A DNA stretch of 64,000 bases, taken from Clostridia bacterium (lineage in GTDB: Bacteria; Bacillota; Clostridia; UMGS1883; UMGS1540). Position numbers and translations under genes: made by a program. The notes under the pieces were generated by a model, which was given only the letters and a program-made list of their open reading frames with translations, did not search any database and was not told the origin of the DNA. Positions 3,735-15,305 of the stretch are shown piece by piece. Location of the stretch: NCBI GenBank assembly GCA_045533905.1, contig JAZSIR010000022.1:36498-100497 (forward strand), given 5' to 3'. The stretch's first letter is position 1. Each line of letters begins with the position of its first letter.

Positions 3735-4565
3735 ATGCAGGTTGGAATTTTAGGTCTCGGGCTTATCGGCGGCAGTGCGGCGCGCGCCTATAAAGAGGCA
3801 GGGCACACGGTTCTCGCTTTTGACCGCGACAAGGTGATTCTCGATTACGCCATTTTATGCGGCGCGGTGGATGCGCCCCTTCCGCCCGAGGACCTTTCGA
3901 AAGTAGATTTACTGCTTATTTGTCTCTACCCCAAAGCGGCGATAGAATACCTTCGCGAAAACGCCGCGCGCATCTCAAAAGATGCCGTAGTGATTGACTT
4001 TTGCGGCACAAAAAAAGGAATCTCGGAGGTAGGCTTTGCGCTTTCTAAAGAATACGGCTTTCTCTATGTGGGCGGCCACCCCATGGCAGGCACGCACCAC
4101 AGCGGCTTTAAATATAGTAGAAGCGATATGTTCTCGGGCGCGCCCATGGTGATTGTGCCGCCCACTCGTGACGATATAGCGCTTCTTTCACGTGTGCAGA
4201 AGCTTTTATCGCCGCTTTCGTTCGGTTCCTTTACCGTAACGGATGCCGAAGAACACGACAAGAGGATTGCTTTCACCTCCCAGCTTGCGCACATTGTTTC
4301 AAATGCGTATGTAAAATCGCCCGGTGCGGAAAACCACCGCGGTCTTTCCGCCGGAAGCTACCGCGATTTAACGCGCGTGGCGTGGCTCAATCCCGATATG
4401 TGGACGGAATTGTTCCTCGAAAACCGCGAGGCGCTCCTTTCGGAGCTTGACGGGCTACTTAAAAATCTCACAGAATACCGCGACGCTTTAAGAGACGAGG
4501 ACGGCGAGCGCCTATGGCAGCTACTCGAGGACGGACGCCGCCGAAAAGGAGAGATTGACGGATGA
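3735..4565 (+). CDS. tyrA: Prephenate dehydrogenase
   Basis: GLGLIGGS Rossmann motif, GGHPMAG, EEHD, SYRDLTRVA. Confidence 0.93.
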   Translation: MQVGILGLGLIGGSAARAYKEAGHTVLAFDRDKVILDYAILCGAVDAPLPPEDLSKVDLLLICLYPKAAIEYLRENAARISKDAVVIDFCGTKKGISEVGFALSKEYGFLYVGGHPMAGTHHSGFKYSRSDMFSGAPMVIVPPTRDDIALLSRVQKLLSPLSFGSFTVTDAEEHDKRIAFTSQLAHIVSNAYVKSPGAENHRGLSAGSYRDLTRVAWLNPDMWTELFLENREALLSELDGLLKNLTEYRDALRDEDGERLWQLLEDGRRRKGEIDG

Positions 4566-5626
4566 AAAAAATACACGTTGCCGCCGCAAAATCCTATGAT
4601 GTTATCCTCCAAAGCGGCTGTCTTAAAAATATAGGTAAGCACCTTGCGCCTTTTGCCAAAAACGGCTACGCCGCCATTATCACGGACAGCGTGGTGGATG
4701 CGCTTTATGGCGAAACCCTTTCGCGCTCGCTTTCAGAAAGCGGCGTGAAAACTGTAAAATTTGTATTTCCAAACGGCGAAAAATCAAAAAATGCCGATAC
4801 GTACCTTCGCGCGCTTTCCTTCCTTTCTGAAAACCACGTAACGCGCGATGACCTCATCATCGCCCTCGGCGGCGGTGTGGTAGGTGACCTTGCAGGCTTT
4901 ACGGCCGCGACATATTTACGCGGCATTGACTTTGTGCAGATTCCCACCACGCTCCTTGCGATGGTAGATTCCTCCGTCGGCGGCAAAACGGCGATAGATT
5001 TGCCCGAGGGCAAAAACCTCGTCGGCGCTTTTCATCAGCCGCGTGCCGTGTTCTGCGACCCCGAGGTACTCGATACACTTCCCGCCGATATTTTCAGAGA
5101 CGGCTCGGCGGAAGTGATTAAATACGGCGTACTTGGCGATGCCGCGCTTTTTTACCACCTCACGGAAAAAGGCCTCGATTTCGACCGCGACTATGTACTG
5201 GAGCGCTGTATAGCGCTTAAAAGCCGCATCGTGGAAAGCGATGAATTTGACAAGGGCACCCGAGCGCTTTTAAACCTTGGGCACACCGTGGGGCATGCCA
5301 TTGAAAAGGAAAGCAATTTCGCGCTTTCGCACGGCGTCGGCGTCGGCATCGGCATGGCGATGATTGCAAAAAGCGCCGCGGCAAACGGATTTTGCGAAAA
5401 AACGGTTTTTGAAGAAATTTGCGCGGTTTTAGAAAAATTTGGTCTTCCTACATCGACCGAAATGGAAAAGGGGCGCATTCTTTCGGCCATGCTTTCCGAT
5501 AAAAAACGCCGCGGCGATGCGATTACACTTGTTCTCCCCGAAAAAATCGGGAGTGCTGTGCTTTACGAGGCACCCATTTCGTCTCTTTCTGCCTTTCTTT
5601 TTGAAGGCGACAAGGAGGAAGTATGA
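4562..5626 (+). CDS. aroB: 3-dehydroquinate synthase
   Basis: GGGVVGDLAGF, PTTLLAMVDSSVGGKT, LNLGHT. Confidence 0.95.
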   Translation: MKKIHVAAAKSYDVILQSGCLKNIGKHLAPFAKNGYAAIITDSVVDALYGETLSRSLSESGVKTVKFVFPNGEKSKNADTYLRALSFLSENHVTRDDLIIALGGGVVGDLAGFTAATYLRGIDFVQIPTTLLAMVDSSVGGKTAIDLPEGKNLVGAFHQPRAVFCDPEVLDTLPADIFRDGSAEVIKYGVLGDAALFYHLTEKGLDFDRDYVLERCIALKSRIVESDEFDKGTRALLNLGHTVGHAIEKESNFALSHGVGVGIGMAMIAKSAAANGFCEKTVFEEICAVLEKFGLPTSTEMEKGRILSAMLSDKKRRGDAITLVLPEKIGSAVLYEAPISSLSAFLFEGDKEEV

Positions 5627-6891
5627 ATATTACCATCTCGCCGCGGCCCCTCCGTGGCAAAATCTCGGCGATTCCCTCAAAATCCGTAGCGCACCGCCTA
5701 CTCATCGCGGCGGCGCTGGCGAAAACGCCTGCAAAAATTTTGATACGTGACACAAACGAAGATATAGATGCCACGGCAAGGTGCCTTTTGGCGCTCGGCA
5801 CGCGTGCAGAGAAGGCGGCAGATGGCTTTACGCTTACGCCCACCTCGTCGTACGCTTCCGAAATCGACTGTGGCGAAAGCGGCTCCACCCTTCGCTTCCT
5901 TCTCCCCGTTTTGGGGGCATACGGAAGGGCGGTTCGCCTTCAGCTTCATGGGCGGCTTGGGGCAAGACCCCTTTCCCCCCTTTGGGAAGAGCTCGAGCGC
6001 CATGGAATGACGCTTCGAAAGGAAGATGAGAACACGCTTTTAGTCTTTGGAAAGCTCCAAAGCGGCGCGTATTCTCTTCCGGGGAACATTTCCTCGCAGT
6101 TTATAAGCGGCCTTCTTTTTGCCTTGCCGCTACTCTCTGGGGACAGTACGCTTTCGATTACTTCCCCCATCGAATCCGAAGGCTACATAAAAATGACCGA
6201 GGATGCCCTTAAAAAATGCGGCATTCGGTTTACTGCCCGAAATAATACCTATAAAATCCCCGGCGGGCAGGTGCCCGTGGTGGCGCAAAACGCGCCGCTC
6301 TCTGCTGAGGGGGACTGGTCAAACGCCGCGTTCTGGCTCTCGGCAGGTGCCTTTTCGGACGGCATTTCGGTAGACGGGCTCTCGCTTTCCTCTCTGCAAG
6401 GCGACCGCGAAATTGTATCGATTTTATCGCGTTTTGGCGCGGAGGTACGCGAGGAAGAAACCGGTATTCTCGTAAAGCGCGGCACAATGACAGGCCTTTC
6501 GCTTTCTGCGCGGCAGATTCCCGACCTTGTGCCGATTCTCTCGGTTTTAGCGGCCGGCGCGCACGGCAAAACGAAAATCTCAGGTGCCGAGCGGCTGAAA
6601 ATTAAGGAAAGTGACCGTCTTTTGGCGGTTTTTGAGATGCTTTCCGCACTTGGCGGCATTGTGGAAAGAACGGAAGACGGCCTTATCATCGAAGGCGGCG
6701 TGCCCCTTTTGGGCGGCACGGTGGATAGCTTTTCTGATCACCGCATTGCGATGAGCGCTGCCATTCTTTCGTCACTATGCCAAGGCCCCGTCACCATTTT
6801 GGGCGCGGAGGCCGTAAATAAATCGTATCCCGCCTTTTGGGAGGACTTTGCCGCCCTTGGCGGTCAGTTTGAAAGGAGCGAAATCCTTTGA
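5623..6891 (+). CDS. aroA: EPSP synthase
   Basis: PSKS.AHR, CGESGSTLRF, SSQFISGLL, KESDR, DHRIAM, KSYP.F. Confidence 0.95.
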   Translation: MNITISPRPLRGKISAIPSKSVAHRLLIAAALAKTPAKILIRDTNEDIDATARCLLALGTRAEKAADGFTLTPTSSYASEIDCGESGSTLRFLLPVLGAYGRAVRLQLHGRLGARPLSPLWEELERHGMTLRKEDENTLLVFGKLQSGAYSLPGNISSQFISGLLFALPLLSGDSTLSITSPIESEGYIKMTEDALKKCGIRFTARNNTYKIPGGQVPVVAQNAPLSAEGDWSNAAFWLSAGAFSDGISVDGLSLSSLQGDREIVSILSRFGAEVREEETGILVKRGTMTGLSLSARQIPDLVPILSVLAAGAHGKTKISGAERLKIKESDRLLAVFEMLSALGGIVERTEDGLIIEGGVPLLGGTVDSFSDHRIAMSAAILSSLCQGPVTILGAEAVNKSYPAFWEDFAALGGQFERSEIL

Positions 6892-7994
6892 GCAGTACGT
6901 TTGGAAAAAATATTCATATTTCTCTGGCGGGCGAATCCCACGGCGAGGCTCTCGGCGTGATTATGGACGGATTTCCCGCAGGCTTTCGTGTGGATATGGA
7001 AGCGCTTTCTGCCTTTTTGGCGCGGCGCGCACCCGGGCAAAACCGATTTTCCACGCCACGGCGCGAGGCAGATGCCCCTAAATTTTTATCAGGTCTACTG
7101 GGGGGTGTAACCACGGGTGCACCGATTTTAGCCATTATTGAAAACACAAACCAAAAAAGCGCGGACTATGCGGCACTCGCAGATATTCCGCGTCCGGGGC
7201 ATGCAGACTATACGGCGCATATAAAATACGGCGGCCACGCGGACGCGCGCGGCGGCGGGCATTTTTCCGGTCGCCTTACGGCACCCCTCGCGGTTGCCGG
7301 CGGCATTGCGCGGCAGATGCTTTCCGAAAAGGGCATTTTGGTTTTTGCACACATTCGCGCCATCGGCGGCGTATGGGGAGAGGCACCCGCGTATTCCCCA
7401 AGCGATATACCTGCCCTTTCGGCTGTCGCAGAGAAAGAGTTCCCTGCATTTGACGATGCCGCCGCACCTCGTATGGAGGCGGAAATGGATGCGGCACGCG
7501 AAGCGGGCGACTCTGTGGGCGGCATTATCGAGGTTTCTGTACTGGGACTTCCCGCGGGACTTGGTGCTCCGATGTTTGACCGCGTGGAAGGGCGTATTTC
7601 CGCGGCCGTTTGGGGCGTGCCGGCCGTTCGCGGCATTGAATTCGGGGAAGGCTTTGGCGCGGCGAATTTACGCGGCAGCGAGAATAACGACGCTTTCTAT
7701 TATGACGAGGACGGCGCAGTCCGCACCCGCACAAACCACGCCGGCGGGGTACTCGGCGGCATCTCAACGGGCGAGCCGCTCGTTTTCCGCGTAGGCATAA
7801 AGCCTACACCCTCGATTTTCAAAGAACAGGAAAGCATTTCTCTCTCTAAGAAAGAGGCGGCAACGCTTTCTACAAAGGGGCGGCATGACCCGTGTATCGT
7901 ACCGCGTGCAGTGCCGGCTTTAGAAGCCGCAACGTCTCTTGCCGTACTCGATTTACTGTTTGACCACGATATGCTTTGGAAAAAGGAGCGATAA
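6888..7994 (+). CDS. aroC: Chorismate synthase
   Basis: GESHG, PRPGHAD, GGGHFSGR, KPTPSI, GRHDPC; TTG start overlapping the aroA stop. Confidence 0.95.
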   Translation: MSSTFGKNIHISLAGESHGEALGVIMDGFPAGFRVDMEALSAFLARRAPGQNRFSTPRREADAPKFLSGLLGGVTTGAPILAIIENTNQKSADYAALADIPRPGHADYTAHIKYGGHADARGGGHFSGRLTAPLAVAGGIARQMLSEKGILVFAHIRAIGGVWGEAPAYSPSDIPALSAVAEKEFPAFDDAAAPRMEAEMDAAREAGDSVGGIIEVSVLGLPAGLGAPMFDRVEGRISAAVWGVPAVRGIEFGEGFGAANLRGSENNDAFYYDEDGAVRTRTNHAGGVLGGISTGEPLVFRVGIKPTPSIFKEQESISLSKKEAATLSTKGRHDPCIVPRAVPALEAATSLAVLDLLFDHDMLWKKER

Positions 7995-7997
7995 ACG

Positions 7998-9152
7998 ATG
8001 GAGAATCTCTTAAAAATATACCGCGATGAAATCAACCGCATCGATGATGAGATGGTACGTCTTTTCGGCGAGCGGATGGAGGTGGCAGGAAAGATTGCCG
8101 CCCACAAAAAGGAAAACGGGCTTCCCGTTCTCGATGCACGCCGCGAGCGTGAGAAAATGGCAGATGTACAAAAGAAAGCCGATCCGCGCTTTGCTTCGTA
8201 CACCACCTCTCTCTACTCGCTTCTCTTTTCTATGAGCCGCGCGTGGCAGGAAAAGCTGCTCGCGCCCGAAAGTGCGCTTCATAAAACGGTTTCGGAAGCG
8301 ATCGACGCGCACACAAACTGCGAATTTCCGCCGAGCGCGATGGTAGCTTGCCAGGGCGTGGACGGGGCATACTCCCAGATTGCCGCGGACCATATGTTCC
8401 AAAATGCGAATATTTTATATTTTGATACGTTTGACAAGGTCTTCTCTGCAATTGACAAGGGGCTTTGCACGTACGGCGTTTTGCCGATTGAAAACAGCAC
8501 GGCAGGCTCCGTAAACCGCGTGTATGACCTGATGCTCGAGCATAATTTCTACATTGTGAAAAGCACGCGCATTAAGGTGGACCATTGTCTTCTTACAAAA
8601 GAAGGCGTGGACATTTCGGAAATTCGCGAAATCTTCACGCACGAGCAGGCCATTCGCCAGTGTGGCGACTTTTTAGCCTCGCTCGGAAAAGATGTGAAAA
8701 TAACGCCGTGCGAAAATACGGCCATGGCGGCAAAGCTTGTGGCAGAGTCTACCCGCCGCGACGTGGCGGCGCTTTCCTCGTACCACTGTGCAAAGCTCTA
8801 TGGGCTTTACTGCCACAAGAGCGCCGTGCAAAATACGGAAAACAACTACACGCGCTTTATCTGCATTTCCAAAAAGCTTGAAATTTATCCGGGTGCGGAT
8901 AAAACGAGTATTATGATGGTGCTTCCGCACGAGCCGGGTGCGCTTTACAAGGTGCTCGGACGTCTTTACACCATCGGTCTAAACCTCATAAAGCTCGAAA
9001 GCCGCCCTATGCCAAACCGTAATTTCGAGTTTATGTTCTACTTTGATTTAGAAACAAGTGTGTATTCTGAGGCGTTTGTGGAGCTTTTATGCGAGCTTGA
9101 GAATTCGGGCGAAGAGTTCCGCTACCTCGGCAGCTACACGGAAACGGTGTAA
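7998..9152 (+). CDS. pheA: Chorismate mutase / prephenate dehydratase (P-protein) with ACT domain
   Basis: N-terminal R.EI..ID...LF.ERM mutase domain, PIENSTAG, NYTRF, KLESRP. Confidence 0.92.
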   Translation: MENLLKIYRDEINRIDDEMVRLFGERMEVAGKIAAHKKENGLPVLDARREREKMADVQKKADPRFASYTTSLYSLLFSMSRAWQEKLLAPESALHKTVSEAIDAHTNCEFPPSAMVACQGVDGAYSQIAADHMFQNANILYFDTFDKVFSAIDKGLCTYGVLPIENSTAGSVNRVYDLMLEHNFYIVKSTRIKVDHCLLTKEGVDISEIREIFTHEQAIRQCGDFLASLGKDVKITPCENTAMAAKLVAESTRRDVAALSSYHCAKLYGLYCHKSAVQNTENNYTRFICISKKLEIYPGADKTSIMMVLPHEPGALYKVLGRLYTIGLNLIKLESRPMPNRNFEFMFYFDLETSVYSEAFVELLCELENSGEEFRYLGSYTETV

Positions 9153-9155
9153 GTT

Positions 9156-10391
9156 ATGAAAAAATGCGGACTTTTGGGAGAAACCCTCTCCCACAGTTTT
9201 TCGCCCCGGTTGCACGCCCACTTCGGCACGTATTCTTACGAGCTTTTTGAAGTGGCGCCGTGCGCGCTCACGTCCTTTCTTATGACGCGTGATTTTGACG
9301 GATTGAACGTAACGATTCCGTACAAAAAAGCGGTGCTTCCGCACCTTGACGAGCTTTCGCCCATCGCGGCGCGGCTTGGAAGCGTGAACACCATCCTTCG
9401 CCGCGAAGACGGCACGCTCTGGGGGCATAATACGGACTATTTCGGCTTTTCGTATATGCTTTCGAAAAGCGGCATTTCCGTGGAAGGGAAAAAGGCACTC
9501 GTACTGGGAAGCGGCGGTGCATCTGCTACCGTGTGCGCGGTGCTTTCTGACGCGGGCGCGCGCGAGGTGTGCGTAATTTCAAGAAGCGGGGAAAACACAT
9601 ACGAAACGCTTTCCCGCCACTATGATGCGGAAATTATCGTAAACACCACACCCGTCGGTATGTACCCGCACGTGGGCGAGGCGCCCATCTCTCTCGCTCC
9701 TTTCAAAACCTGTGCGCTCGTTTTGGACATTATTTATAACCCTTCGAAAACGGCGCTACTTCTCGAAGCGGAAAGCCTCGGCATCCCGCACCTTGGGGGG
9801 CTTTCCATGCTCGTCGCGCAAGGGGCGGAAAGTGCAGGATATTTTGGCGGCGCGCCCATCTCCGATGCAGTTTTGGAAGAAACGATACGTAAGATAGAAA
9901 AATCGCAGAAAAATCTCATTCTTATCGGGATGCCGGGGGCAGGCAAAACGACCATTGGCAAAAAACTTGCCGCGCGAATGGAGCGAAAATTTATAGATGC
10001 GGATGATGCCGTGCGAGAGCGCGCAGGCATGTCTATCCCCGAAATTTTTGAAAAAGAAGGCGAAGCCGGTTTTCGAAAACGCGAGACCGAGGTTTTATCC
10101 GCACTCGGGAAAGAGAGCGGCCTTGTAATTGCCACGGGCGGCGGGGCCGTTGTGCGCGAAGAAAACTATGCGCATCTCCACCAAAACGGCGTATTCGTTT
10201 ATCTTCGCCGTGCGCTCGAAAACCTCCCGAAAAAAGGGAGGCCCCTATCGCTTTCGGGAAACCTCCCAAAAATGTATGCCGAGCGCGCGCCGCTGTATGC
10301 GCGCTTTGCCGATGCCGAGGTGGAAAATGAGGGGACACTTTCAGAAGTTATAGAAAGGGTGGTAAAAGCGTATGAAAATTCTTGTAATTAA
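9156..10391 (+). CDS. aroE: Shikimate dehydrogenase-shikimate kinase fusion (AroE-AroK)
   Basis: HSFSP, NVTIPYK, NTD, GSGGA, NTTPVGM, then GMPGAGKTT P-loop, FRKRE, ATGGG, RPL. Confidence 0.9.
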   Translation: MKKCGLLGETLSHSFSPRLHAHFGTYSYELFEVAPCALTSFLMTRDFDGLNVTIPYKKAVLPHLDELSPIAARLGSVNTILRREDGTLWGHNTDYFGFSYMLSKSGISVEGKKALVLGSGGASATVCAVLSDAGAREVCVISRSGENTYETLSRHYDAEIIVNTTPVGMYPHVGEAPISLAPFKTCALVLDIIYNPSKTALLLEAESLGIPHLGGLSMLVAQGAESAGYFGGAPISDAVLEETIRKIEKSQKNLILIGMPGAGKTTIGKKLAARMERKFIDADDAVRERAGMSIPEIFEKEGEAGFRKRETEVLSALGKESGLVIATGGGAVVREENYAHLHQNGVFVYLRRALENLPKKGRPLSLSGNLPKMYAERAPLYARFADAEVENEGTLSEVIERVVKAYENSCN

Positions 10392-10806
10392 CGGACCGAA
10401 CCTGAATATGCTGGGCATTCGCGAGCCTGAAATCTACGGGCACGAAACGTACGCGGATCTTGTGCGCTATATTGAAGAAAGCGCGCGCGAGGCAGGCGCC
10501 GAAATCGAAGTGTACCAGTCAAACTACGAAGGGGATATCGTTACAAAAATTCAGGAAGCACACGGCAAAATGGACGGCATTGTGATAAACCCTGCCGCCT
10601 ACACGCACACGAGCATGGCAATTTTGGATGCGCTTCGCGCCGTTTCCCTCCCCGCTGTGGAGGTGCATCTTTCCGACATTACAAACCGCGAAGCCTTTCG
10701 CCGCCTTTCCTATGCAGGTATGGGCTGTGTGAAAACATTTATGGGGCTCGGGTTTGCAGGGTACAGAGACGCGATTTTTTATCTGAAAGAAAACTACGGC
10801 AAATAG
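10372..10806 (+). CDS. aroQ: Type II 3-dehydroquinate dehydratase
   Basis: INGPNLNMLG.REP.IYG, NPAAYTHTS, EVHLS. Confidence 0.95.
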   Translation: MKILVINGPNLNMLGIREPEIYGHETYADLVRYIEESAREAGAEIEVYQSNYEGDIVTKIQEAHGKMDGIVINPAAYTHTSMAILDALRAVSLPAVEVHLSDITNREAFRRLSYAGMGCVKTFMGLGFAGYRDAIFYLKENYGK

Positions 10807-10848: not shown

Positions 10849-11059
10849 CATGCTTATCTTTGCGAAAGCAAAATAAAACTCTGCCCAAAGTGCAGAATAC
10901 CACTTGCGAAGCAAATACCACCCGCGCCGCGCGCGGATATACCTGCGAAGCGATCAATGGACCGCGCACAGCGTCCTCTGCGCGGTGGTGTTTTGACATA
11001 GCAAAAAGGCTTCTCCTTTTTGCGGTCTGGACTTTTTTACATTCCCCTTGCAAAGAGAG

Positions 11060-11093
11060 AAAGCGACCGACACGTACTCGTGTCGGTCGCTTT
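11060..11093 (-). terminator. Terminator downstream of the SLH gene (likely bidirectional)
   Basis: Perfect 15-bp stem AAAGCGACCGACACG/CGTGTCGGTCGCTTT. Confidence 0.8.
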
Positions 11094-11120
11094 TGTATCT
11101 ATAATTTTCGGGTAGGAAAA

Positions 11121-13295
11121 TTATTTCGCGATAATGCTGTTTGCAATGCCAAGGATCTTAGCGAGCTGTGCACGTGTGATGGTGGCCTTCGGAGCCAGAG
11201 TGCCATCGCCCATGCCGTTTACGATGCCTGCCTTTGTAAGAGCTGTGATAGCTTCAACACACGCTGCATCGATGCTTGCTGCGTCTGTGTATTCGATTGC
11301 TTCTGCAGTTTCAGCGAGTTCTACGCCTGCAGCCTTGAGGGCATTGTAAAGAAGTGTGAATGCAACTTCGCGAGTTGTTGCAGCTTCTACATCAACCTTG
11401 TCGCCAAATACACCGAGGATGTTGGCTTCGGCAGCTGCTGCCATTTCAGCCTGTACCCAGTGATCCTTTGCAACGATATCGGTGGTAGCACCATCTTTAG
11501 CCTTGAGGCCTGCAATGCGAACTGCAAGTGCAACAACCTGAGCATTTGTGGTCTTTTCTTCCGGACCGAATGTTGTAGCGGTCATACCCTTGATAACGCC
11601 TGCTTTTGCAAGAGCGTCGATGCCGTCGTATGCCCAAGCGTAGGTTTCCTTGTTAACGTCGGTGAATGCTGCAGCACCGTTTTCGATAGCTTCGCCTGCC
11701 GGATCGTTATCTTCCTTGGGTTCTTCCTTCGGCTCTTCTTCCTTCGGTTCTTCTTCCTTCTTATCATCGCTGAGGGAAGCACCACCAACGCTGCCGCCGC
11801 CGCTCGGGAGCTTAGCGATTGCATTTGTGAATGCAACTGTCTTTGTTGTGGAAATGTCAAGAGCGTCGGTTGCGGTGATCACAACTACAACGAACTTGCC
11901 TTCTGTTTCCTTCGGAACAGCAAAGCTGTTGTCGGAATCAAGAACTTCTTTGCCTTCTGCGCTGAATTCTTCTGCTGCAACGAATTCGTCAACAATGTAC
12001 CATGCATAGGCAATTGTCGGAACTGCAGTGTCGCCTTCAGCGTTGCTTACTGCAGATACGTTAGCTGCAGAAAGTGCGAAGGAGGCGCCTGCATACGGCT
12101 TCTTGGACGGAACGGTTTCTGCGATTGTGAGTGTCGGCGGTTCGCTTGTGATGGTGTAGCTGTCAGAAGCAACTTCTTCACTTGCTGCGAATGCTTCGCC
12201 GCCTACAGAGATTGTAACAATGGCCTTAACAACCACGGTCTTGTCAATGGCATCTGCGCCGAAGGTTGCAGTTTCGCCGACAACCGGATCTGCTGCGCCT
12301 TCAAGGAACCACTTGTATGCTACTGCATATTCTGCATTTGCATATGTCTTTTCAAAAGTAGCAACTGCCTTAGCTGCTGCAGCTGCGGAAACTTTGCCGC
12401 CTTCAACTGCTACTGCAGAGATAACCGGAGCATAGCCTTCTGCCGGGAGGATGTAGCCACAGTCAAATGCTTCGGAAAGAGCACCTTCAGCATCGATAGC
12501 GCGAACATCTGTCTTCGGGAGAACGGTGTAGGAAAGCTTCTTGCCAACCCAAGCATCGTCGCTGATTGCGAGTGTTTTGCCGGTAGCTACTGCGGCTTCG
12601 ATGCCTTCTACATACCACTTAACTTCGGAAACATCGCCTGCTGTGGTATCAGCACCCGGTGTTCTTTCACCGTTGTCGAATGCGTAGTCAGCTTCAACGG
12701 TTTCGCCATCTGCAACTGTGCCGTCTACTGCAAAAGAGGAAGCTGTGGGAGCAACCGGCTTTGCCTTTACAACAACTGCATCAGCAGCGGTTTTGTCGGT
12801 AATGGTCCAAGCTTCGCCACCGTTTACTGCGGTGTAAAGGGAAGTGGCGGTCATAGCACTGTCGCCTGCGGCGATTGCCTTGAAGGTGAGAGTGAAGAGA
12901 ATGCCATCAGCCGGCATATCGATAGAGCCCTGGCCCTTCTTAATGCCGAGGATGCTGAGGTCGCCATTTTCGAGGAATGTGCACATATCGAGTGCAAATG
13001 CTCTGTCGAATGTGGTAACAGCATCTTCCGGATAGTCGCTTACAGCGTCGCCTTCAGCGTCTACGAGCTGTACAACTTCGTCGTCGTATGCAAGAACGAG
13101 GTCATGCATAGCAACTGTTTCGGGGCCTTCTACCTTTACGTCTACAGTGAAGAGATTGTCTTCACCTTCTACATAGTAAACCGAGGCCGGATCCCAAACA
13201 AGTGTTAATGTGCCTTCGTTTGCCGCGGCTACTGCGAAAGACATCGACAGAAGCATCATAACGGCAAGCAAAACGGCAGAAATTTTCTTCATCAT
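11121..13295 (-). CDS. Cell-surface protein: signal peptide, N-terminal cohesin-like domain, about 3 Ig-like repeats, Glu/Pro/Lys linker, 3 C-terminal SLH domains
   Basis: Signal MMKKISAVLLAVMMLL; FTVDVKV...LAYDDEVVQLV...LFTLTFKA cohesin-like strands; FTDV...WAY..I..L...GVIKG...FGP and GIVNG.GDG...P...ITRAQ SLH motifs. Confidence 0.85.
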   Translation of the reverse strand: MMKKISAVLLAVMMLLSMSFAVAAANEGTLTLVWDPASVYYVEGEDNLFTVDVKVEGPETVAMHDLVLAYDDEVVQLVDAEGDAVSDYPEDAVTTFDRAFALDMCTFLENGDLSILGIKKGQGSIDMPADGILFTLTFKAIAAGDSAMTATSLYTAVNGGEAWTITDKTAADAVVVKAKPVAPTASSFAVDGTVADGETVEADYAFDNGERTPGADTTAGDVSEVKWYVEGIEAAVATGKTLAISDDAWVGKKLSYTVLPKTDVRAIDAEGALSEAFDCGYILPAEGYAPVISAVAVEGGKVSAAAAAKAVATFEKTYANAEYAVAYKWFLEGAADPVVGETATFGADAIDKTVVVKAIVTISVGGEAFAASEEVASDSYTITSEPPTLTIAETVPSKKPYAGASFALSAANVSAVSNAEGDTAVPTIAYAWYIVDEFVAAEEFSAEGKEVLDSDNSFAVPKETEGKFVVVVITATDALDISTTKTVAFTNAIAKLPSGGGSVGGASLSDDKKEEEPKEEEPKEEPKEDNDPAGEAIENGAAAFTDVNKETYAWAYDGIDALAKAGVIKGMTATTFGPEEKTTNAQVVALAVRIAGLKAKDGATTDIVAKDHWVQAEMAAAAEANILGVFGDKVDVEAATTREVAFTLLYNALKAAGVELAETAEAIEYTDAASIDAACVEAITALTKAGIVNGMGDGTLAPKATITRAQLAKILGIANSIIAK

Positions 13296-13347
13296 AATTT
13301 TGTTACCTCTTTCTTTGGATTTTACCGCGTGCCTTGCGGGGTATTAC

Positions 13348-15144
13348 TTAATAACCAAATCTCCATTCAGCATAGAGAGCGGAAGCGTCGAGACCGTTTA
13401 CTTCGCCGCTGCCGTCAATGTCGGCTGCGATATTGTAAAGTTCAACGTTCTCTGTGGTTGCACGCCATGCAGCGTAGAGGGCGGAAGCGTCCATACCGTC
13501 AACCTTGCCGTCAACGTAGATGTCACCGGCTACCATATTTACGGTGAAGCCTTCTGCGGTGATATCTTCTGCGCGTACCGAGTCAACAGCTGCAACTGCG
13601 CCGTCTGCTACTGTGAGCGTGAAGGTGAGCGTTACAAAGCCGGGACGTGCAACAACAACGGTGTGATCGCCGTCTGCAACAGCTTCTGCAGTAAAGACTG
13701 CGCCGTCAGCTGCAGCTTCTGCGCCGTCAACGGTTACAGTTGCATCCACAACAGCATCTACTGCAATCTTTGCGAGTGTGATAGCTACTTCGATACCCTT
13801 TACATTGATCTGGTTTACAGTCAGTGTGTAAGAAACAGTTTCTGTAGTATCTGCATCATCGCCGTATACGATAGTAGCAACTGCTTCGTAAGCTGTCTTC
13901 GGTTCTGCTGCATCGGAAGCGGCACGAGCGAGTTCTACAACGCCTGCTTCTACAGCAATTTCGTCAATCGTCCAGCTGATAACTGCATCAGAGCCTTCTA
14001 CTGCGGCCGGAAGCGTAACGCTTGCCTTACCGAAGAGAGCCTGTGCATCATCCGGAGTGCCATCTTCCGGCCATGCCGGGTCAGCAGTTTCGAATTCGGA
14101 ATCGCTGTATACGACTTCGGGAGCTACGAGAGCGTTCTTTGCAGCGGTGGTTTCAGCTGTGATTACAACATCTGCTGTAACAACTGCAAACTTCGGAGCT
14201 GCGATAGAAACTACATATGTGTCAACGCCTGTCTTCGGAGCGGTGATACCTGTGATAGTAAGAACACCGTCAGAAATTGCATACTCGAAACCTTCTACTG
14301 CTTCGCCGCCCTTTGTGATGGAAACGCTTTCTGCACCGATGTTGGAAATCCATTCGTTAGCATCTTCAAGTGCGATGGCGATTGCTTCGTCGCCTACGAG
14401 AGCGAGGTCAGAAGCTGTACCCGGTGTCTTTGCGACAGCTGTGATACCTTCTTCAGATTCCCAACGGGCATCTTTAAAGAGCTTCTTGTCAGCTGCAGCT
14501 TTCAGAACAACCTTTGTTACAGTGCCTTCGCCGAGGTTTGCAATGGCGAGCTCGCCATCTGCAAAGGTTACGTCATCAAGGTCAACGGAAACTTCTTCGC
14601 CGTTTAAGGTTACGGTAACTGTGCCGACTCTTTCGAACCATGCATCAGCATCGCTGCCGGTTACGGAGAATACGAGGTCATCCCCAAATTCCCAGTTTTC
14701 GGTTACGAGTGCAAGTGTCGGAGCCTTTACGAGTGCTTCAACGCTTGTGTATGCAACAGCAGAAACGTTTTCACCGCCAACGAAGGCTGTGATGATGCCG
14801 CCGATTGTTGCATCTGCACGCGGAACGAATGTGAACGAGAAAGCGCCTTCTGTTGCAGCCTTCTGGTCGATGTAGACAACGTCTTCGCCGAGGTCTTCAT
14901 CCGTATATGCCGCAAGAGCCTCATCATCGTATGCCTGACCGCCACGAACAGCGAGGATGGTTACTTCTGCATCAGCATCCGAAATGGTGCCGGCGATGGT
15001 AACTGTACCTTCTGCTTCGTTAACGGTAGCCGATGTGATTGCCACTTCAGTTGCAGTTTCTTCTGCAAATGCCACTGTGGGAATCATGCACAATGCGAGT
15101 ACGATCGCAAGGGCTTTCCGCAAGTTGTTTGTTCTTTTGAACAT
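13348..15144 (-). CDS. Secreted acidic protein: Ig-like domains, two DUF1533-like repeats, X module and C-terminal dockerin
   Basis: Signal peptide; duplicated Ca-loop/helix GDIYVDGKVDGMDASALYAAW and ADIDGSGEVNGLDASALYAEW; HTVVVARPGF X-module motif. Confidence 0.8.
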   Translation of the reverse strand: MFKRTNNLRKALAIVLALCMIPTVAFAEETATEVAITSATVNEAEGTVTIAGTISDADAEVTILAVRGGQAYDDEALAAYTDEDLGEDVVYIDQKAATEGAFSFTFVPRADATIGGIITAFVGGENVSAVAYTSVEALVKAPTLALVTENWEFGDDLVFSVTGSDADAWFERVGTVTVTLNGEEVSVDLDDVTFADGELAIANLGEGTVTKVVLKAAADKKLFKDARWESEEGITAVAKTPGTASDLALVGDEAIAIALEDANEWISNIGAESVSITKGGEAVEGFEYAISDGVLTITGITAPKTGVDTYVVSIAAPKFAVVTADVVITAETTAAKNALVAPEVVYSDSEFETADPAWPEDGTPDDAQALFGKASVTLPAAVEGSDAVISWTIDEIAVEAGVVELARAASDAAEPKTAYEAVATIVYGDDADTTETVSYTLTVNQINVKGIEVAITLAKIAVDAVVDATVTVDGAEAAADGAVFTAEAVADGDHTVVVARPGFVTLTFTLTVADGAVAAVDSVRAEDITAEGFTVNMVAGDIYVDGKVDGMDASALYAAWRATTENVELYNIAADIDGSGEVNGLDASALYAEWRFGY

Positions 15145-15276
15145 TTTCCTACCCCTTCCTTTAATTGGAATGTTTTTACTTTGCGAATATGTACATTATT
15201 ATGCAGACTTCGCAAGAGTGTGATAAAAAGCCACCCTCTTCTTGGGGAGAGTAGCCCTTTATAACTATACGCTCTT

Positions 15277-15305
15277 ATTATACAGGCTTCCCGTCAAAAA
15301 TGCAA
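15277..15305 (-). promoter_or_regulatory. Sigma-A promoter of the dockerin/cohesin-SLH operon, giving a 5' UTR of about 125 nt
   Basis: TTGCAT-17 bp-TATAAT on the minus strand. Confidence 0.6.

Follow-up and report, generated by a model that had tools for sequence, protein, structure and literature searches.

What is a cohesin-dockerin joint for in a bacterium that appears to have no cellulosome? The question is raised by two adjacent minus-strand genes at positions 11121-15144 of a 64,000-nucleotide stretch (hereafter the window) of contig JAZSIR010000022.1, from a Clostridia bacterium whose assembled genome (G000; 1.57 Mb) is 95.5% complete and not closed. The upstream gene encodes P0001, which ends in an X module and a dockerin, and the downstream gene P0002, which begins with a cohesin and ends in SLH repeats. 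A reading made from the letters alone (the sequence-only reading) had proposed that cellulosome-type anchoring parts are reused here to hold an abundant, non-enzymatic protein on the wall, possibly as a modular two-component surface layer (S-layer). Our findings uphold the first part of that proposal, with type II matches on both sides, no enzyme, and fused relatives adding support, and displace the second as the leading reading. We consider it rather probable that the enzyme-free X-dockerin protein and the cohesin-SLH protein would clip into an abundant surface stalk, on which the N-terminal domain of P0001 (the tip) would serve for adhesion or surface binding; we are surer of the joint than of the role of the tip. 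The pair is laid out as follows, all on the minus strand.

13348-15144, minus: gene 1, P0001, 598 aa, distal rod protein with C-terminal X-dockerin (open reading frame (ORF) calls, predicted fold)
15064-15144, minus: P0001 signal peptide, about residues 1-27 (by eye; helix 6-18 in the model)
14731-15057, minus: tip domain, residues 30-138, an Ig/FnIII-like sandwich with a conserved V-Y-I-D-Q motif (alignment, profile, fold)
14158-14730, minus: two beta-sandwich spacers of the Shr-like HID family (former DUF1533), residues 139-329 (PF07550)
13807-14157, minus: fourth beta-sandwich, residues 330-446, with the fusion junctions of relatives just C-terminal to it (model, alignments)
13546-13806, minus: X module, residues 447-533 (profile and fold match)
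13351-13530, minus: dockerin, residues 539-598, two near-identical calcium-loop/helix repeats from 540 and 574 (Pfam, alignment)
11121-13295, minus: gene 2, P0002, 724 aa, stalk protein anchored to the wall, cohesin at the N-terminus (ORF calls, predicted fold)
13224-13295, minus: P0002 signal peptide, about residues 1-24 (by eye)
12759-13223, minus: type II-like cohesin, residues 25-179 (Pfam, profile, fold)
11805-12758, minus: three beta-sandwich stalk repeats, residues 180-497 (model)
11712-11804, minus: Gly/Pro/Glu/Lys linker, predicted disordered, residues 498-528 (predicted local distance difference test (pLDDT) <50 at 499-528)
11124-11669, minus: three SLH repeats, residues 543-724 (Pfam, fold)

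Two co-oriented secreted proteins 52 bp apart had been described, and the two ORFs, with signal-peptide-like starts and the gap at 13296-13347, agree with this. An X module plus dockerin had been placed at 13351-13527; both modules are present, but that interval covers the dockerin alone, the X module directly preceding it at about 13546-13806. Pfam Dockerin_1 matches P0001 residues 539-590 at 32.7 bits (cut-off 22.9), and residues 449-597 fold like the CipA X-dockerin 3kcp_A (Z 13.1, root-mean-square deviation (rmsd) 2.4 over 134). The best matches of the X-dockerin family profile are type II, namely 4wi0_B (ScaA; E 4e-19) and CipA 2b59_B (E 1e-14). The dockerin repeats at 540 and 574 are identical at 10/13 residues, and both calcium loops are intact by sequence. 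On P0002, the proposed N-terminal cohesin was recovered as PF00963 in the genome search (30.2 bits, cut-off 24.1, window 12789-13151) and missed in the whole-protein Pfam scan. Its predicted fold points the same way: residues 26-177 match type II cohesins, 3l8q with Z 14.9 (rmsd 2.4 over 142) and SdbA 2bm3 with Z 13.7, the margin of type II (Z 13.7-14.9) over type I (12.3-13.3) being small, and the best matches of the cohesin family profile are type II as well (Acetivibrio cellulolyticus ScaB-type 3l8q, E 6e-11). At the other end Pfam calls two SLH stretches; the model of residues 542-724 agrees with the complete SLH trimers of Sap (Z 18.5, rmsd 3.3 over 175) and Paenibacillus alvei SpaA (Z 16.1), in line with the three repeats expected there. 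A match of P0002 to NF033190 covers the SLH part alone (29.7 of 1275 bits). The genome also encodes CsaB, the pyruvyl transferase for the SLH ligand, over cut-off. Both models are strings of beta-sandwiches (mean pLDDT 83.5 for P0001 and 80.4 for P0002), whole-chain Foldseek searches return only generic tandem Ig/FnIII chains, and Pfam and NCBIfam scans of both proteins find no catalytic family, as had been read.

The joint is also the only one detected in this genome. Both with Pfam and with our own family profiles run on all six frames, G000 shows a single dockerin and a single cohesin, neighbours at this locus. GH9 and CBM3 were not found in searches with working controls, GH5 occurs below cut-off only, and GH48 gave no match, though the control genomes likewise gave none. 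No multi-cohesin scaffoldin and no dockerin-bearing glycoside hydrolase was found in G000; P0001 has no cohesin, no CBM3, and no enzyme; and none of the eight relatives of the same genus searched has more than one Pfam cohesin. Because these are the sole dockerin and the sole cohesin found in a 95.5%-complete genome, the pair is, as judged by gene content, no part of a cellulosome. Multi-cohesin proteins and cohesin-dockerin adaptors do occur elsewhere in the family and order, where a genome can have as many as 12 Pfam cohesins (L158 on G011 C166; G012 C86 and C96; G017 C34, C43, and C45; G028 C8, C16, and C18), and L158 is a second tip-dockerin locus that feeds a cohesin-dockerin adaptor chain.

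What the joint does is best seen in relatives that have it and relatives that do not. Word-based searches gave one homologue apiece for the two proteins, and a metagenome scan matched in the SLH region only (best-segment identity ≤37%); the closest records are uncultured Clostridia assemblies, with ruminant gut sites given for some. In one search for relatives, 64 of 80 loci matched the SLH profile only. Across 21 genomes of the same family, the synteny asked about by the sequence-only reading is real: an adjacent pair occurs in 14, nine of them SLH-anchored (G001, G002, G004, G006, G008, G010, G011, G012, and G018) and five (G009, G013, G015, G017, and G020) in which the tip gene precedes a stalk gene with a copper-amine-oxidase N-terminal domain at its end. 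The stalk repeats, three in P0002, number two or more in orthologues. L041 is a further split pair. The next family, like L068, L084, and L086, has shorter genes of the tip-X-dockerin or tip-dockerin type, several of them followed by cohesin stalk genes. L068, L084, and L086 are three-gene loci: a tip-dockerin (~190 aa) is accompanied by a cohesin-like Big_4 stalk carrying SLH and by another cohesin, anchored through SLH or an amine-oxidase-type domain.

In two of the 21 relatives, on the other hand, the pair is one protein (G005, 876 aa; G007, 903 aa), which runs from signal peptide and tip through two spacers, the fourth domain, and two stalk repeats to the SLH trimer. What is missing is exactly the X module, the dockerin, and the cohesin; the upstream neighbours are common to both genomes. 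G005 and G007 are sisters in the RpoC (100/99), SLH (98/97), and tip (99/98) trees (the RpoC tree was built from 18 out of 30 retrieved loci, with G004, G008, G018, and G021 left out). Since they are nested inside a split-form genus with split outgroups, their fusion is, on these trees, the derived state. A profile of the tip recovered 283 representatives at E≤0.001, and among the 150 listed, for which architectures were read, three more single chains appeared. P0041 (1038 aa, on four contigs) is without X, dockerin, and cohesin; its first 462 residues align to the upstream protein of G006, stopping just before the X module, and it is sister to G006 (99/98). P0025 (835 aa) is likewise without all three, and P0041 and P0025 have different junctions. 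P0061 (1115 aa), sister to G018 + G021 (97/97), is a read-through in which the X module and the cohesin remain, together with roughly half of the dockerin. Four changes are needed to explain the single-chain forms on the SLH tree, and a single clade is rejected whether five forms (p-AU 5e-6) or four (1.6e-5) are placed in it; the architecture groups for this topology test were named after seeing the architectures, not after seeing the tree. Recombination could disturb the SLH tree, yet the fusion junctions also differ. Because several separate related lineages carry both proteins fused as one, we suggest that P0001 and P0002 would clip into one stalk; and because fused forms fall at four distinct positions of the SLH tree, the most likely role of the cohesin-dockerin joint is to take the place of a peptide bond within one rod.

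Other signs point to a working joint. In all 15 dockerins parsed (of 16; that of G012 was left out, and two cases take the better of two candidate first repeats), the two repeats are more alike within a species (9.9/13 residues) than between species (3.6/13). In known dockerins, both dual binding and species-specific recognition depend on symmetry of this kind (PMC12484212). In L041 the X module, dockerin, and cohesin are nearest those of G000 (53, 59, and 44%), while the tip and spacers are nearest G006, which suggests transfer of the joint as a single cassette. Pairwise identities of dockerin and cohesin do correlate (rho 0.46), but not more closely than those of dockerin and SLH (0.54), so they make no case for co-evolution.

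Overall, we suggest the following assembly. P0001 and P0002 would be exported by their signal peptides, and the SLH trimer of P0002, judging by its fold and by CsaB in the genome, would bind pyruvylated wall polymer. The N-terminal cohesin would then take hold of the P0001 X-dockerin through a type II interaction that depends on calcium. The assembled rod would have the domain order of the fused proteins, tip outward, with about nine beta-sandwich domains; at ~4 nm per domain, we estimate roughly 35-40 nm when fully extended. Being non-covalent, the joint would allow separate secretion, shedding, or replacement of the fast-evolving outer half. The SLH region is 69% identical among six split members versus 26-39% for all outer domains.

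Several observations weigh against the stalk model. The five amine-oxidase-anchored pairs have weak dockerins (1-11 bits), and Pfam calls a cohesin in four of them and none in G020. Contig ends cut the locus in two of the 21 relatives (G014 and G021), and no match was found in three more (G003, G016, and G019; 77, 94, and 84% complete). P0025 and P0061 are each seen on one contig. The symmetry of the dockerin repeats could also come from gene conversion. In G004 the upstream gene is a signal peptide plus X-dockerin only (186 aa; L027:4033-4593), so the tip is dispensable on the stalk in at least one assembly; the regions at the break, as seen in P0001, have a five-residue repeat in common, and the sequence suggests a deletion between short repeats, or else an assembly effect. 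The low predicted template modelling scores (pTM; 0.52 for P0001, 0.43 for P0002) do not fix the rod shape or the domain orientation, and the adhesive role proposed for the tip draws on modelled fold and position only.

Could the pair itself be the S-layer, with P0002 anchoring, P0001 clipping on, and the domains packing sideways into a lattice? Composition speaks for it. As the sequence-only reading observed, both proteins are very acidic, Ala/Val/Thr-rich, and codon-biased: among 971 predicted proteins of at least 200 aa, P0001 and P0002 take ranks 2 and 5 by isoelectric point and ranks 1 and 2 by Ala+Val+Thr content, and among 1201 genes ranks 37 and 11 by codon adaptation (our own gene calls, 1291 genes; reference, 29 ribosomal-protein genes). 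High expression of the pair is thus probable. The SLH trimer with CsaB, a long structured leader, and the presence of SbsB (rank 38) and an archaeal S-layer protein (rank 23) among the generic Ig-chain Foldseek matches fit the same idea. Those matches, however, are unspecific tandem Ig chains with TM-scores of ~0.1-0.2; domain number varies in both halves, and G004 keeps the X-dockerin only; a disordered linker lies between stalk and anchor. Above all, a better lattice candidate exists elsewhere in G000 (C17:15192-17957, minus strand; L121), an acidic protein of 921 aa with N-terminal SLH and codon rank 3, whose residues 201-921 have a homologue in 21/21 family relatives. It presumably resembles a conventional clostridial S-layer protein, although searches identify its SLH part alone, and is likely the main S-layer protein. 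With this candidate at hand we favour an accessory structure over the lattice for the pair, and we hold the two-component S-layer to be unlikely; the stalk, probably abundant, would stand on a separate S-layer or pass through it. G000 has two similar-looking SLH proteins (C15:75232-78258, rank 28; C11:38771-41695), phage-like genes next to the S-layer candidate (C17:8193-13471), and two very long ORFs (C3:100249-109992, 3247 aa; C1:126201-134153, 2650 aa).

The tip raises two related alternatives. It matches no Pfam family and no solved relative by sequence; by fold it gives generic matches only (Z up to 9.6; it was folded only within the full chain, which makes the search weak), and all its matches in a structure atlas stay below 0.9, with MG2-like leads among them. 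A possible homology to the cohesin was tried and rejected (profile comparison probability 2.5%). A secreted paralogue of 259 aa is encoded at C1:141320-142099 (plus strand; L122), without dockerin, SLH, or Pfam family and with codon rank 34; a 60-aa ORF lies directly upstream of it, and short-frame paralogues recur across the genus. At L161:4375-6153 (G039) a tip-like domain belongs to a protein of 593 aa that has three SLH repeats but lacks a dockerin; its gene adjoins a 1038-aa N-terminal-SLH frame. The tip might then be a self-assembly module, by which stalk tips and the free paralogue form a second outer layer above the S-layer. Its N-terminal position in 137 of the 150 listed representatives (65 of these with a dockerin by our own profile), its retention while spacers and anchors are swapped, and the recurrent anchorless paralogues would agree. 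Identity among orthologous tips is just 38%, though; the G004 dockerin protein has no tip, and the paralogue is unlinked, on contig C1, so we give such self-assembly a small chance. In its widest form the idea would be a further outer coat, detachable and raised on stilts: SLH- or amine-oxidase-anchored stalks reaching past the S-layer, a species-specific clasp, a replaceable and sheddable rod, and a tip that self-assembles with the free paralogue, the type II anchor of cellulosomes being a reuse of this older clasp. We regard this scenario as improbable.

A receptor for haemoglobin or haem, comparable to streptococcal Shr and shown on the stalk, is suggested by the two HID matches of P0001, which lie above the Pfam cut-off (PF07550, 29.2 bits versus 22.3, two stretches), and by 6/12 orthologues that match the family at E≤0.1. 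Neither protein has a NEAT domain, however (in a genome-wide NEAT search the controls gave no match). Mean identity among orthologues is lowest in the HID-like spacers (26-27%), which several orthologues have reduced or dropped altogether, and the sequence match to solved HIDs lands on the X module rather than on the HID-like domains; such a receptor is very unlikely. Equally doubtful is that cohesin and dockerin are non-binding relics on proteins acting apart. Their divergence among orthologues is high (mean identity 28 and 33%, respectively), but the dockerin has kept both calcium loops, intact and symmetric; no second anchor is present on P0001; different genera retain the pair; and X, dockerin, and cohesin are lost jointly in the fusions, with the dockerin halved in the read-through. 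That the pair represents ordinary cellulosome anchoring parts, its modules being nearest the SdbA/CipA type and the remaining genes lying in the unassembled few percent, can practically be set aside given the gene content described above.

The stalk operon was credited by the sequence-only reading with its own promoter and terminator, and the following elements bear on this.

15277-15305, minus: sigma-A-type promoter candidate, TTGCAT-17 nt-TATAAT (sequence, pattern match, alignment)
15145-15270, minus: long 5' leader with hairpins and ribosome-binding site, its start being the presumed transcription start (folding, alignment)
13296-13347, minus: 52-nt spacer including the ribosome-binding site of gene 2 (sequence)
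11060-11093, minus: terminator-like hairpin of 15 pairs with a weak U tail, past the second stop (hairpin scan)

Candidates exist for both signals. The promoter at 15305-15277 is not among the listings of a consensus scan; by our own pattern the same form, TTGCAT-17-TATAAT, stands upstream in 3/7 relatives checked (G001, G005, and G007). Terminator-like sites of this kind number 6 in the region versus 6.1 in shuffles, that is, no excess. The leader with its flanks folds at -39.4 kcal/mol and is conserved in part over seven sequences, with two-sided change in 6/18 consensus pairs; an Rfam search of the locus and of one relative's leader gave no credible match. The leaders of L025, L026, and L028-L031 resemble window 15145-15270, the G000 version being without a central part found in most relatives. 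Intergenic hairpins (-24 to -30 kcal/mol) occur in G002, G006, and G010 (L026:5912-6000, L029:2456-2545, and L032:5502-5583), with none in G000, and may tune the ratio of the two proteins. The long antisense stop-free frames pointed out earlier are real but ordinary for codon-biased genes of G000: 13/30 top codon-biased genes have one over >70% of their length versus 39/372 others. The antisense ORFs 10860-13208 and 13210-14607 were rejected as genes, being shadows of codon bias. Shikimate-pathway genes and a decarboxylase-like gene (names read from the sequences) flank the operon; the shikimate-pathway-like run (window 4562-10806, plus strand) converges on its 3' end, a neighbourhood matched only in G004. 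Flanking genes vary between species, G004 excepted, and therefore no function can be read from them.

Many cohesins and dockerins occur outside cellulosomes, and what they do there is mostly guesswork. In this one family a split pair, a read-through, and clean fusions, with about four origins, form a natural control; judged by this series, the joint would serve to replace a peptide bond of a surface rod by a link that can come apart. It also lets the gain from splitting be compared, whether shedding, exchange, or easier export. More than 12 type II pairs with differing, internally symmetric recognition residues are possible orthogonal connectors for surface display, and a tip domain without a named family proves widespread in Clostridia. 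What is new is the enzyme-free, one-to-one operon with natural fused equivalents; the parts themselves are of the known SdbA-CipA type. A literature search, mostly without subscription papers and supplements, found no account of the operon or the fusions.

The closest known systems are SdbA-CipA of Acetivibrio (Clostridium) thermocellus and ScaB-ScaA of A. cellulolyticus (reference structures PDB 2b59, 3kcp, 5g5d, 4u3s, and 4wi0). As in SdbA-CipA, an N-terminal type II cohesin sits on an SLH protein and a C-terminal X-dockerin on its partner, with the dockerin gene upstream and the anchor downstream. Unlike CipA, the docked P0001 has no cohesins, CBM3, or enzymes, and P0002 has a three-domain Ig stalk; there is one pair per genome, the dockerin repeats are strongly symmetric, and a fused replacement exists in several lineages. 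A survey of scaffoldins distinguishes SLH-anchoring and nonSLH-anchoring classes and lists amine-oxidase-like domains as non-SLH anchors (PMC11557425). P0002, with cohesin and SLH, fits the first class and the amine-oxidase-domain orthologues the second, but that survey demanded both a protein with several cohesins and a glycoside hydrolase fused to a dockerin, and G000 has neither. Cohesin-dockerin pairs outside cellulose breakdown are established, including in ANME archaea (PMC9012536). The non-cellulosomal cohesins of Clostridium perfringens (2vo8 and 2w1n) and A. fulgidus (2xdh) match at Z 12.3-14.3; unlike those pairs, ours has no enzyme or toxin cargo and is a fixed one-to-one operon with fused equivalents. 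Shr of Streptococcus pyogenes shares two tandem HID-family domains with P0001, which differs in having no NEAT or LRR domains and in using the HID-like domains as internal, variable spacers; PMC9945957 describes haem passing from the HIDs of Shr to its NEAT domains, with R196, Y197, and M238 as the haem-capping residues of HID2. Finally, the pair shares with SLH S-layer proteins (Bacillus anthracis Sap, P. alvei SpaA, and Geobacillus stearothermophilus SbsB) an SLH trimer, CsaB, acidity, and codon bias, but the SLH part of P0002 is C-terminal behind a disordered linker, the build is in two parts, and the likelier lattice former is encoded elsewhere in the genome.

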